Source: Eledone cirrhosa
Lineage: Eukaryota
Direction of reading: 5' to 3'
Assembly (NCBI GenBank): GCA_964016885.1
Contig: OZ024742.1
Location: forward strand, 230,950,001 to 231,014,000
Length of the DNA: 64,000 nucleotides
Position 1 is the stretch's first letter; every line of letters starts with the position of its first letter. Below, in pieces: positions 25,621 to 35,473 of the stretch. Both the position numbers and the translations under genes were made by a program. The notes beneath the pieces were generated by a model, which made no database searches, was not told the origin of the DNA, and saw only the letters and a program-made list of their open reading frames with translations.

Positions 25621-25828
25621 TAACGAAGGAAGTGTGATAAGGAACCAGATGGACCATAACGCACCAGAGTACTCAATACTTAGGGTAGTAGAGTGGGTAA
25701 TAGGAAAATGTTTAACCCCGACGGCAGAGCTCAAGCCGTTTCGACGGCTATTTCTGGACGCTATTTCAGTCCAGAAATAGCCGTCGAAACGACTTGAGCT
25801 CTGCCGTCGGGGTTAAACATTTTCCTAT
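25621..25828. repeat. Family B element: palindrome (25700-25828) of an HHR 3' half plus a tail
   Basis: Arms read ...AGCCGTC GAAACGGC ttgagctct GCCGTC GGGG...; copies at 27310, 30862 and 35267, and a fragment at 26262. Confidence 0.9.
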
Positions 25829-25842
25829 ATATATATATATAT

Positions 25843-26164
25843 ATAGTATAAAAAAACGAAAAATCAGTGATGCATCTGGACTCAGTTTATTGCGTGTTAC
25901 AATTGTTTCGCCGGTAGGTAGCTCGAGACATGATCACTGTATGGATCTGGCTGATTCTATGGCTGCAGGTTCCTTCGGACACATGCAATTCGTTCGGAGA
26001 AAATTTGCTCCAAACGAATTGCATGTGTCCGAAGGAACCTGCAGCCGTAGAATCAGCCAGATCCATACAGTGATCATGTCTCGAGCTACCTACCGGCGAA
26101 ACAATTGTAACACGCAATAAACTGAGTCCAGATGCATCACTGATTTTTCGTTTTTTTATACTAT
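25843..26164. repeat. Near-perfect palindrome, ~158-bp arms
   Basis: Centre AAATTT at ~26003, about 3 mismatches. Each arm reads outward ...CCGGC GAAAC AATT GTA ACACGC AATAAA. Confidence 0.97.
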
Positions 26165-26409
26165 TCACACTCTGCTCTGTATGAATATTGAGTGCTAATT
26201 TTGGCATACCGCCTATGGAAGCACCATAGCTACCATTAATTACACACACGTATATATATATGAAAAGATTCAGGACCCCGACGGCTGGGCTCCGGCTTTT
26301 TGACACACATATATATTTATATATATGTGTGTGTGTGTGTGTGTGTGTGTGTGTGTGTGTGTGTGTGTGTGTGTGTGTGTGTGTGTGTGTGTGTGTGTGT
26401 GTGTAAGGA

Positions 26410-26730
26410 ATAAAAATAATCAGGATTTCGTTACATTAGTTTATTTACCGAATGTGTCGGTAATACAATAGGAAAAGACTTCCCTACTGCATTGATTTCT
26501 TCAGAATCTATTGAACGGCGTAAATAACAATTATTTACCAGCCACATGTCCGAACATCTCAATTCCGAAAACGCAAACATTACCATGTTCAGGAATGTAT
26601 TTGGTAAATAATTATGTTATTTATGTTGAGAAATCAATACAGTAGAAATGTATTTTCCTATTGTATTGATTGAAACGTTCGTAAAGAAATAAAATAATTT
26701 TATGTAATTTAATCCTGGTTATTTTTATTA
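26410..26730. repeat. Old inverted repeat with a decayed hammerhead in each arm
   Basis: Left arm (minus) keeps CUGAAGA plus stem II. Right arm (plus) keeps stem II aaucaauacaguag/cuauuguauugauu plus GAAAC guuc GUA and AAUAAA. Confidence 0.7.
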
Positions 26731-27309
26731 ATTTTATATATCTTCTGTTATATTGTAAAATTACTGTGATTGGAAATTTACCGATTGGATTAGACTCTGA
26801 ACTGTCTTTTATCTATCATTCTGTGGACTATAAAATCACATTTGATCTTTGAATTATTCTTTGTCTTTATATGTTTGTGTTACCAATGTAAACTATTTAT
26901 ATATGTATTTCTTCACAAGTCCCACAGCAGTAGCGGAGTCACCACGTGTACATACTCGACCTGTTAGAAGCACATAGTCATAAATCTACACGTGGGCGAC
27001 TCAAATGTTATCCTAACATCGCTGCACTGTTTTTCTGAACAGCCACATGTTTCGGTGATGTCTTGAGCGTCTGAGCAGCCCTTTTTGAGGACGCACTGCT
27101 CACACATACCAGATGGGAAGGATCTAGAAAATCTGGTCAGCAGCCTGCAGTTCGCGGTGGTTCATAATGGCAGGGAAATCGTTGAAGTGATGGCCGTCTT
27201 ATGTAAGGAAGTGGCAGTTATCACTATATATATATATATAAAGAGAGAGAGAGAGAGAGAGAGAGAGAGAGAGAGAGAGAGAGAGAGAGAGAGGGAGAGA
27301 GAGAGGGGG

Positions 27310-27495
27310 GGGAAGAGTCAGAACCCCGACGGTTGAGCCCCGGCCGTTTCGACAGCTAGATCCGAACTAGCTGTCGAAACGGCCGGAGCTCAACCGTCGG
27401 GGTCCTGACTCTTTTCCTATTAAACACTCTACTACCCTGAGTATCGAGTACTCTGGTGCGTTATGGTCCACCTGGTATTTTACCACACTTTCTTA
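27310..27495. repeat. Family B element, palindrome 27311-27418
   Basis: GACAGCTAG-atccgaa-CTAGCTGTC centre, then GAAACGG..CCGTC GGGG. Confidence 0.9.
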
Positions 27496-27699
27496 GTTAT
27501 ATATATAATTAGAATACAAATAAATCGAACATTATCTTTGGTGTAACCCATGCATATGTATATATGTGTGTGTATGTATATATATATATATATATATATA
27601 TATAGAGAGAGAGAGAGAGAGAGAGAGAGAGAGAGAGAGAGAGATTTGTACATACACACACACACACACACACACACACATATATATATATATTAATAT

Positions 27700-32974: not shown

Positions 32975-33398
32975 TGGTGGATTGAAAGTATCGGTAGAAC
33001 GACGGACATCATGCTTTGTGGCATACAGTTACGGCTCTTTACATTCTGAGTTCAAATCCCGCCGGGTTTAGCTTTGCCTCTCATCCTTACGTGATCGATA
33101 AAATAAAGTATCAATAACGCACTGAGGTCAATTTATGCGAATTTTCCCTATTCCTAAAATTGTTAACCCTGCGCCTAAATCAGGACGGTGGATTAGCAGT
33201 AGCGATAGATCATCGGACAACATGCTTTGCGGCACATAGTTACGGCCCTTTACGTTCTGCGTTCAATTCTCACCGAGTTTAATTTTGTCTTTCATCCTTA
33301 CAGAGTCAATAAAATAAAGTACCAATAACGGGTTGTTTCAATCGATACCTCGCCCCTTAAAATTACTTGCCTCGTGTTAAAAGTAGAAACGATTATTA
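32975..33398 (+). mobile_element. Two tandem SINE family 1 copies
   Basis: Two successive GGTGGATT..GTTCAA..TCATCCTTAC..ATAAAATAAAGTA units. Confidence 0.8.
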
Positions 33399-34364
33399 AT
33401 TCTTAAAACCTTTATCTAAGATCTTTCACGCGCTTTGAAGATGTTGACAGAAACTTCACTTGAAACCATTTGCAGTAGAACCAATGTAGTCTTTAGAATC
33501 AAAATTATCAGTCATAGATACTTTCGCATGCTAAACGAACGATTTGAAAGACAAATTATTTCAAAAAGATTGGATATCCGTTTGAGATTTTTAATACTTA
33601 TATTGGTTTATCTTGCGTAGATATTGTGTGGACACCTAAAAAAATATTAACATTTCAATTCAAAGTCTTAGAATATTTATGATTCTTCAAAAAATATTTA
33701 TTTATATGAAATGAAGCAGGCGGTGTATAAATTAAATTTGTCTTTGCTGTGTGGAGTCATCAATACGACTCGTCACAGCATAAGAGGTGGTAACACATTG
33801 ACCGTGTTCGTTTTTACTTATATGGAATAAATGTGGGGGTTTAGTTTGAAATGTAAATCTATGTATTTTTATGAAGTTTGAATGCATTATTGATGCGGAG
33901 AGAAAATATCGATAAACAGTTTATATTATCAATTTTATGCATACATTTTTGTAATGGTGATATTCCTTTAAGTTGGTGAAACGGCAGAGTGAAAGGAAGT
34001 CAAATTTGCCTCGGCATATGTTCAGTTTCAGTGCGTTCTCAGTTCAAATCCTGCCGAGGACCAAGATCATTGAATAAAACATCTAACCAAACGTAAAATA
34101 CCGAAGACACGCCATACGTTAGATGGTGCGCTTACAACTCCATCTGGAGTTATGAAGACTATGTGTACGCATGCGTGTATATTCAGTAATTCTTCTTATT
34201 CTTTTGCTAGTTTCAGTGGTTAAGCTGCGATTATGATAGACACCTCATACAAGGGATTTACTTGATCATATCGACATACCATCCCAGTACTTAATTTTCT
34301 TCAAGTCTGATACTTATTTTATCGATCTCGTCATGTCAACGGATAGGCGACGAGAGTTGAACAC

Positions 34365-34635
34365 AGACACCAACAGGTTACCCGAGTAGCCATGGGTGCA
34401 AGAACGGGCTCTAACTACGCCAACCTATTCGTCAGCCACTTTCAGGCCCAAATCTTTGCCCAGTACACCGACCCCCCCCCCCATCCCCGAAGAATGCGGC
34501 CGTTATATTGATGACTGCTTATGTGCCACATCACTCACCCGAGAAAAGCTCGACAACTGTCTCTCTTTTCTCTGTTCCTTCCACACCGCCCTCAACTTCA
34601 CTACCTCCATCTCCACCACCTCCATTCACTACATA
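34365..34635 (+). pseudogene. PLE reverse transcriptase fragment (Penelope/Poseidon-like, YIDD)
   Basis: QQVTRVAMGARTGSNYANLFV (frameshift) RYIDDCLCATSLTREKLDNCLSFLCSFHTALNFT matches QxxGVAMGxxxGPNYANLFV...YIDDC...NSFHPALKFT. Confidence 0.85.
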
Positions 34636-34899
34636 CAAACATCTGCAGACACACTTATATATATATATATATATATATATATATATATATATATATATAT
34701 ATATATATATATATGGAGGCTGCCAACTCGTTTTCGAGTACGGCCACTACTTTATATCCATGTAGGAGAACTCCTACCGATGCGCTGAACGAGTGTGACT
34801 TTTTAGTTCAGCCAGCGAATTGAAAACTCTGGTACAAACACTACACTTGTGACAATTATTGACACATAGTGCTGGGCCCATGGTACCATGTGACGACAA

Positions 34900-35170
34900 G
34901 TGCAGAGAGATCTCCAGATATAAAGCAATGCCTGTGCCGTGAAGCTTTTATAGTGAGCAAAGGCACTGCACAAAGCCAGTCCCACTCTCTTAACCAAGAT
35001 GATATTTACCAAAAAGAAGAACAAGTCAACATCATTGGATACCATCAGGGTTGCAGGTGTTATATCAGAGTTTTCCTTCTCCTAGAATTCTGCCTTGACA
35101 AAGGCTAAGGGGTCATCTCTCCCGGTGATTTTGGATGCCCATTGACTCTTAAGAGCTCCTTTGCCCTTTG
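34900..35170 (+). repeat. Dispersed repeat shared with 42345-42630 (possibly a LINE 5' region)
   Basis: Shared AAGCAATGCCTGTGC..CCCACTCTCT..CAACATCAT..CAGAGTTT.CC.TCTCCTAGAA..TTGGATG.CC.TTGACTCT. Confidence 0.7.
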
Positions 35171-35266
35171 TATATATATATATACAAACAAATATCTACA
35201 TATATATATTTATGTACATATATATATATACAAGTATATATATATATATACAAGTATATATATATA

Positions 35267-35473
35267 TAGGAAAGGAGTCAGGACCCCGACCGTAGAGCTC
35301 AACCCGTTTGGACGGCTATTTCTGCCCTCAAAGTCCAGAAATAGCCGTCGAAACTGCTTGAACTCTGCCGTCGGGGTCCTGACTACTTTCCTATTACCCA
35401 CTCTACTACCCAAAGTATCGAGTACTCTGGTGCGTTATGGTCCACCTGGTTCCTTACCACACTTCCTTCATTA
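35267..35473. repeat. Family B element, palindrome 35267-35393
   Basis: Centre GACGGCTATTTCTG-ccctcaaagtc-CAGAAATAGCCGTC. Confidence 0.88.

Follow-up and report, generated by a model that had tools for sequence, protein, structure and literature searches.

Palindromic Penelope-like element stubs in the Eledone cirrhosa genome break inside a hammerhead ribozyme at a likely transcription start

A 64,000-nucleotide (nt) stretch of the Eledone cirrhosa genome (contig OZ024742.1, bases 230,950,001-231,014,000; hereafter the window) contains four inverted repeats whose arms turn round in the middle of a hammerhead ribozyme, and this raises the question of what fixes the point of inversion. A previous reading of the sequence alone had proposed that, during reverse transcription of a Penelope-like element (PLE), the cDNA snaps back on stem II of the ribozyme and self-primes, so that ribozyme structure would determine where the copy inverts. 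We find that the palindromes are PLE stubs, truncated at the 5' end and inverted, which probably end at the RNA polymerase II (pol II) start of the element and arose from two run-off cDNAs joined head to head.

A palindrome scan of the window recovered all four inverted repeats (family B), with the places and centres that the sequence-only reading had given. In each copy the arms run from the stem-II 3' strand through GAAAC, stem III and GTC to GGGG, which confirms their description as the 3' half of a hammerhead; one arm of copy 4 carries GAAACTGC. Arm ends are numbered from G12, the G of GAAAC, which is set to 0. The components of the copies are as follows.

25700-25828: copy 1 inverted repeat, centre GCTATTTCA
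25622..25699, minus strand: copy 1 PLE tail, 78 nt, ending in (TA)n
25700..25759, minus strand: copy 1 tail-bearing arm (3' half of the hammerhead), starting at -17 from G12
25760..25767, no strand: copy 1 centre insert, 8 nt, a copy of the arm's own sequence and apparently templated
25768..25827, plus strand: copy 1 tail-less inverted arm, starting at A(-18), the putative transcription start, and ending in CCTA before (TA)n
27313-27413: copy 2 inverted repeat, centre ATCCGAA
27311..27368, minus strand: copy 2 (c2-type subfamily) tail-less inverted arm, reaching -18/-19
27367..27498, plus strand: copy 2 tail-bearing arm from about -9, with a 3-nt overlap with the other arm; tail at 27420-27498
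30968-31029: copy 3 inverted repeat, the core of a longer arm pair, centre TC
30864..30995, minus strand: copy 3 tail (30864-30941) and tail-bearing arm, starting at -12
30996..31056, plus strand: copy 3 tail-less inverted arm, starting at A(-18)
35266-35394: copy 4 inverted repeat, centre CCCTCAAAGTC
35266..35331, minus strand: copy 4 tail-less inverted arm, reaching -14, with a 7-nt insert at 35325-35331
35332..35472, plus strand: copy 4 tail-bearing arm, starting at A(-18); tail at 35394-35472, then (TA)n
about 26260..26310, minus strand: fifth family B fragment, inverted arm only

When the copies are oriented and aligned, they share a single design of (TA)n, inverted arm, centre, arm, 78-nt tail and (TA)n. 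The tail does lie on the left in two copies and on the right in two as they are placed in the window, but this merely reflects the strand of insertion (minus for copies 1 and 3), and the tail side is constant after orientation. One arm reaches -18 in each of the four copies. The pattern CTGA.GA...GAAA has 21 matches in the window and none within the four copies, in agreement with the earlier statement that they lack CUGANGA. An Rfam scan of the window yielded simple-repeat miRNA noise only (among 150 listed of 252 matches), and the output of a generic repeat finder was dominated by microsatellites.

Across the whole 3.0 Gb genome, a 22-nt tail motif has 16,714 exact matches and a 21-nt arm motif has 32,539, as opposed to 0 for the reversed-pattern control of either; the repeats of the window are therefore not due to chance. 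A non-hairpin neighbour at locus L006 led to the parent element. At locus L032 this parent consists of (TA)n, a 74-nt inverted arm, a pseudo-long terminal repeat (pseudo-LTR), the tail, an open reading frame (ORF) with one frame break, a second pseudo-LTR, the tail and (TA)n. At locus L313 the frame is naturally open over 784 codons, and its protein contains the motifs FDIE, YRDDG, FLD and YIG together with DKT, a CxCx5C linker, CxxC and CxH, with RWK replaced by RWR. Judged by these motifs, a single ORF combines a reverse transcriptase (RT) with a C-terminal GIY-YIG endonuclease. Sequence searches of Pfam and PDB with the parent ORF gave 0 matches; among the Atlas look-alikes, RVT_1 is found in 16-20% of members and GIY-YIG in 23%. 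A protein search in which 131 of 33,513 candidates were scored returned exclusively 99-100% identical sequences, many of them with 784-codon frames. The parent also has pseudo-LTRs, a partial tandem, an inverted 5' copy, a one-sided tail and a (TA)n target, in which target-site duplications are unreadable. By its motifs, it is a young, very abundant PLE of the Hydra clade, and the finding of an RT-encoding parent with the same ends bears out the Penelope-like origin proposed for the stubs.

Does this parent contain the part of the ribozyme that the stubs have lost? A full hammerhead had been expected in it and is indeed present, but its core strand, and hence the strand lost from the stubs, is UUGANAA (a U3-A8 variant) and not the predicted CUGANGA; the CUGANGA parent pattern has a single genome match, a chimera that is not the parent. 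As in other type I hammerheads, three helices surround the 7-nt core strand, GAAA and NUH. When any base was allowed at core positions 3, 7 and 8, the pattern had 2,226 matches, and all 100 of those listed read TTGAGAA. Other subfamilies have TTGAAAA, TTGACAA or TTGATAA; across subfamilies, position 7 can be G, A, C or U, with U3 and A8 constant. The minimum free energy (MFE) fold of the parent is a type I three-way junction, with a stability no greater than that of shuffled sequences (z 0.17). In an alignment of 18 copies with three stem II types (T, A and c2), 92% of cells were paired, and in three stem II pairs both partners are substituted, which among related copies amounts to few independent events. 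Rfam gave no match at gathering score in three parent loci. From the modelled fold, the parent carries a full type I U3-A8 hammerhead motif, with self-cleavage after GUC as a prediction, and the stubs retain half a ribozyme, in agreement with the proposal that it is destroyed in them. Tail-bearing copies start at the cut site in only 2 of 61 cases, and cleaved RNA is therefore not a main template.

The U3-A8 covariation is natural, and reportedly active in vitro, in other ribozymes (PMC4209133; PMC3088659). The hammerhead of Schistosoma Cercyon PLEs is likewise type I, located in a pseudo-LTR and marked by U3-A8 covariation (PMC4209133; PMC3088659); in the Eledone element stem III has the full 5 bp, the 54-56 nt within stem II include a promoter-like site, and cleavage is a prediction. 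Because of the U3-A8 core, standard CUGANGA descriptors miss this hammerhead, and a very abundant family escapes both CUGANGA-based searches and Rfam.

To describe where the arms end, we used three sets of loci. The T-type set covered the loci of 96 of the 100 arm-motif matches that head the list of 32,539. In this set, 75 of 95 distinct arms end at -13 to -24, none end at -25 to -55 and 20 extend past the core; each hairpin contributes two arms and three arms belong to one tandem, the arm anchor hides shorter ends, and several values of -22 are spurious extensions whose true ends lie nearer -14 to -18. A tail-anchored set, which is free of the arm anchor, was taken as 60 regions from the first listed of the 16,714 tail matches. 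It yielded 61 ends, with 31 at -11 to -23, two at -24 to -35, none at -36 to -55, six full and 22 shorter, a few of the last stemming from internal deletions. The inversion centres are thus clustered in stem II and not random, as had been proposed. The 76 ends of 38 young hairpins fall without exception at -5 to -22, and the two arms are mostly unequal; 24 of the junctions overlap by 0-2 nt and 14 have inserts.

Clustering in stem II is consistent with a cDNA that crosses the stem II loop, snaps back on stem II and self-primes there. The near identity of the two arms of one copy, the short templated inserts and the recurrent 18/12 and 17/14 junctions, which resemble fold-back synthesis, also fit such an event. 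However, the parent loop (-23 to -26) or the 5' strand of stem II is retained in none of the 38 young hairpins, and the natural stem II pairing was thus not used. The third set consisted of 72 c2-type arms from the first 73 listed of 3,269 matches, of which 18 end at -17, 21 at -18, three at -19, none at -20 to -23, six at -24 to -32 and one beyond the core, with 23 shorter. Ends at -19 are this rare (3/72) although chance extension alone predicts 24%. The predicted apical loop of the c2 type is near -30 to -35, and the edge lies about 12 nt 3' of it. Since 39 of the 72 ends are at -17 or -18 despite a different stem II, the sharp edge follows sequence and not stem II: it tracks the A of TTAGT, 18 nt before GAAA, across differing stems. 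This runs counter to the claim that ribozyme structure sets the inversion point. Snap-back also does not account for breaks that lie outside the ribozyme in other families, for the fixed tail-less end on long unequal inverted copies, or for a hairpin (L091, 2027-2170) in which the outer segments of the arms match two different subfamilies, as is less clearly the case for L092. The apical stem-loop does contain the six c2-type ends at -24 to -32, which could reflect the stem II tip. Taken together, we consider inversion by snap-back on stem II quite improbable; what stands of the self-priming proposal is that the templated inserts suggest a local snap-back during joining. Separately, loci L112 and L031 belong to a sister subfamily with the same tail and another arm (GAAACAG...CTGTA), in which the fold-back is about 20 nt before its GAAAC.

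What distinguishes the position -18? The base is the A of TTAGTC, TCAGTC or TTAGTT, which was kept in the three stem II types as the surrounding stem II diverged. With A(-18) as +1, the CGAAA of the ribozyme falls at +18 to +22 and (T/G/A)GAGCT at +28 to +33. These are the positions of the Bridge or motif ten element (MTE) and of the downstream core promoter element (DPE), for which the consensus was taken from PMC4581360. Scored with this Drosophila-derived consensus, the seven family B parents match 5-6 of 6 positions of the initiator (Inr), 6-8 of 12 of the MTE and 5 of 6 of the DPE. Ranked by the summed score among the 190-313 A positions of each of 13 parent sequences from families B and A, the site leads, alone or in a tie, in 9 and is among the top 4 in every one. 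A second initiator-like base, A(-22), is among the top five in four T/A parents and not in c2 parents. Correspondingly, ends at -20 to -23 and at -17 to -19 occur in a ratio of 13:30 in the T type and 1:28 in the c2 type (p=0.005), under an exact-match rule that under-extends long arms. Copying of the RNA cap by reverse transcription, a process on which literature searches listed no paper, is expected to leave an extra G. Among -18 ends that are unexplained by the partner arm, the preceding base is G in 9 of 11; for ends elsewhere the figure is 10 of 39 (p=0.001). T/A types also have a TATA-like box, 29-30 nt before the site, but c2-type parents lack it and it was given no weight. Contigs of four runs on the parent display a depth step and loose ends near the site, a type of signal that cannot reveal RNA starts.

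These patterns make it likely that the break site of the arms within stem II is the pol II start of the element. A start in the middle of the ribozyme would account both for the stubs and for the escape of the element's own message from cleavage. Counted from this putative start, the first Met of the parent ORF is at +232, with one upstream ATG at +104. At L313 a short upstream ORF begins at this +104 position in the tail and stops just past the tail end; it may limit translation or be spliced out. The Penelope element of Drosophila virilis likewise has a TATA-less promoter with Inr and DPE in its pseudo-LTR; there the start is upstream of the intron and the ribozyme, whereas here it would lie within stem II (PMC2377424). 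A paper on retrozyme promoters also places the start upstream of the ribozyme (PMC12029980).

The distance from -18 to the GAAA box is constant in three subfamilies, which could also be explained by stalling of the RT, or cutting of the RNA, at -18 by a bound protein or a ribozyme tertiary contact, with the cDNAs then joined as they would be after run-off; the ribozyme of an anole PLE is protein-assisted (PMC11167929). Yet the site is paired in the T and A types and bulged in the c2 type, and neither the extra G, nor the second edge at -22 in the T type only, nor the family A site described below is explained in this way, so that we regard a stall or cut as unlikely. A further alternative takes the conserved TAG at -19 to -17 as a 3' splice site and a spliced or lariat RNA as the template. 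The YAG is conserved, CTAAT or CTAAA is found about 14 nt upstream in the A and c2 types, the intron of Drosophila Penelope ends at its ribozyme (PMC4209133), and the minor ends at -24 to -32 could be branch-point stalls. On the other hand, no common upstream exon is joined to the arms, the AG is included in the ends and the c2 type has no pyrimidine tract, which makes splicing very unlikely as the source of the edge.

A hairpin of the same design, unrelated in sequence, served as control:

25843..26241, plus strand: family A hairpin, 152-nt arms and tail

Its tail-bearing arm begins about 3 nt inside the putative family A start. In family A, 9 of 30 ends are at -103 to -105 from its GAAAC, at CCAGTG, a site with initiator-, Bridge- and DPE-like motifs upstream of a degenerate ribozyme-like motif (cores CCGAAGA, CTGAAGG and CCGTCGA). 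Among 22 copies, CGAAA/C is at +18 in 17, and AGACGT or GCATGT (a 6-of-6 DPE) is at +28 in 10. RGACGTGY, the DPE of Drosophila Penelope (PMC2377424), is at +28 in 6 of the 22. Families A, C, D and E keep a ribozyme or ribozyme-like motif and break 5' of it; arms outside family B are 120-150 nt long, and by-catch copies of families C, D and E have the whole ribozyme within their arms.

Several points weigh against placing a transcription start at -18. The claims on transcription are deduced from DNA alone, and the samples of arm ends all come from the start of one contig. The promoter consensus is that of Drosophila, the scoring was chosen after the site had been seen, and parents of the same family lack independence; for the cap-G test n=11, and it was refined after a first pass (16/35). 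A minority of ends is unexplained, namely six of the 72 in the c2 type (-24 to -32) and a few in the A type (-26 to -35); for ends at -24 to -35, stalling at the tip of stem II or at a branch point could be the cause. MFE folds put the family A site on the 3' side of a predicted hairpin, so structure is possible there too, and family C by-catch copies have no sharp end by eye, their 5' ends looking dispersed. Finally, the match between the arms of a hairpin, presented below, fits one RNA copied twice and also fits snap-back.

The outer ends of the hairpins are fixed at two points. Among 128 hairpins, 120 have one tail, five have none and three have two; L003 and L027 are hairpins with tails on both arms. 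Of 130 tail-less arms, 114 terminate in CCTA-(TA)n, and 123 of 126 tails stop at a fixed point. These two outer ends (the tail start and the tail end) are 80 nt apart, at 60 and 140 nt from the putative start, and both fall on a TAT that matches the (TA)n target. Long inverted insertions with unequal arms are bounded by the same two ends, and the presence of the tail-less end on insertions with very unequal arms calls for a second priming event. Within a hairpin the two arms differ by at most one edit in 111 of 123 cases, in comparison with 13.5% between copies, suggesting that usually one RNA or one source locus supplied both. The PLE Poseidon PAc of the anole has two internal RT start sites that bound its tail, on both strands, in vitro (PMC11167929).

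These observations suggest the following mechanism. The pseudo-LTR promoter (initiator at -18, CGAAA at +18 to +22, DPE-like motif at +28 to +33) would make a capped RNA that begins mid-ribozyme and hence does not self-cleave. The RT-endonuclease would nick both strands of a (TA)n tract, and priming would take place internally at the two tail boundaries near the RNA 5' end, 140 and 60 nt from the start. Both cDNAs would run off the 5' end, lose a few bases by trimming and be joined head to head, with overlaps of 0-2 nt or with short inserts of templated origin at the junction; the product would be a single-tailed hairpin. A brief fold-back of a cDNA end may supply the inserts, such as the 8 nt in copy 1. 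Long copies would be primed at the downstream tail on read-through RNA, the sole RNA with a complete ribozyme.

The hairpins might instead have acquired their shape after insertion, through cutting of cruciforms that collapses long inverted insertions to arms of about 60 bp, as variable centres with small deletions and inserts would allow. The same end base is nevertheless found where arms adjoin (TA)n or long direct copies, intermediate arm lengths are almost absent and arms of 120-150 nt persist in other families, leaving this collapse highly improbable. A DNA miniature inverted-repeat transposable element (MITE) transposing as a fixed hairpin would be short, present in very high copy number and flanked by TA, as the stubs are; we give it almost no credence in view of the one-sided tail, the variable centres and the RT-encoding parent with identical ends, which replaces the transposase parent and the fixed unit with terminal inverted repeats of a MITE. 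That the centres vary also agrees with the earlier proposal that hairpins arise anew. A non-LTR retrozyme was likewise rejected: the stubs have half a ribozyme, and whole-ribozyme tandems are about 3.5 kb apart, the length of the coding unit.

How does this element compare with known PLEs? It shares with Hydra-clade PLEs with a C-terminal endonuclease (PMC8557442) a single ORF, DKT, the CxCx5C linker, CxxC and CxH in the endonuclease region, (TA)n targets, a pseudo-LTR with a ribozyme, an inverted 5'-truncated copy and a one-sided tail. Compared with them, its core is U3-A8 rather than canonical, RWR replaces RWK, the unit is about 3.55 kb and the tail about 80 nt as against 30-40; the accessible text of that description includes no start site inside the ribozyme. 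Poseidon PAc of the anole shares the two RT start sites bounding the tail, AT-rich targets and nicking and extension of both strands, but it belongs to a different clade, and the available part of the paper does not address the ends of inverted arms (PMC11167929). Self-priming on an antisense template has been proposed for other PLE palindromes, which similarly have head-to-head inverted pseudo-LTRs, palindromic junctions and a tail on one side (PMC3846280); the present data favour two sense-templated run-off cDNAs.

Inverted tailed PLE stubs, the self-priming proposal, U3-A8 cores and pseudo-LTR promoters are already in print. A literature search, with subscription papers outside its reach, found no paper with a start inside a PLE hammerhead or with inversion centres tied to a start, and the supplements of PMC8557442 (family files, ribozyme annotations) may hold the family; the accessible parts of bioRxiv 10.64898/2026.07.22.740005 and PMC13282606 contain nothing bearing on the mechanism. 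How PLEs form inverted ends and what role their hammerheads have are open questions (PMC8557442, PMC11167929). Tens of thousands of stubs allow predictions at the level of single bases. RNA of the element should have a capped 5' terminus at a single A within stem II, the two run-off cDNAs should measure 140 and 60 nt, and the ribozyme should act on read-through RNA only. In a broader form, a pol II promoter would be overlaid on the hammerhead with CGAAA doubling as the +18 element, making the promoter mRNA cleavage-proof and leaving a whole ribozyme to read-through RNA, and the inversion centres of Penelope stubs in general would be a DNA record of start sites left by twin run-off cDNAs; we see the chances of this broader form as evenly balanced. 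If true, stub centres map PLE start sites from the genome sequence alone.

The window contains further elements of interest. Family C stubs with a whole minimal CUGAUGA hammerhead are located at 25140-25300 (minus strand), 15107 (minus), 47150 (minus) and 37615 (minus)/37937 (plus), and minimal hammerheads of other families at 29037 (minus), 43479 (minus) and 39548 (plus). At 41385-41776, family E folds back about 65 nt upstream of its ribozyme, just 5' of AAGATGGCG/AAAATGGCG, which we take to resemble a YY1 site; a start site would fit there as well. A fragment at 34366-34520 (plus strand) has the RT motifs VAMGA..GSNYANLF, with RYIDD in the next frame, and judging by these motifs is presumably a PLE-type RT of a different clade. 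A broken ORF at 48298-50005 (minus strand) is 32-45% identical to the parent protein and represents a related PLE remnant. Lastly, positions 17300-19100 consist of a long low-complexity stretch rich in GGT/GTT, possibly Pro/Thr-rich coding sequence on the minus strand.

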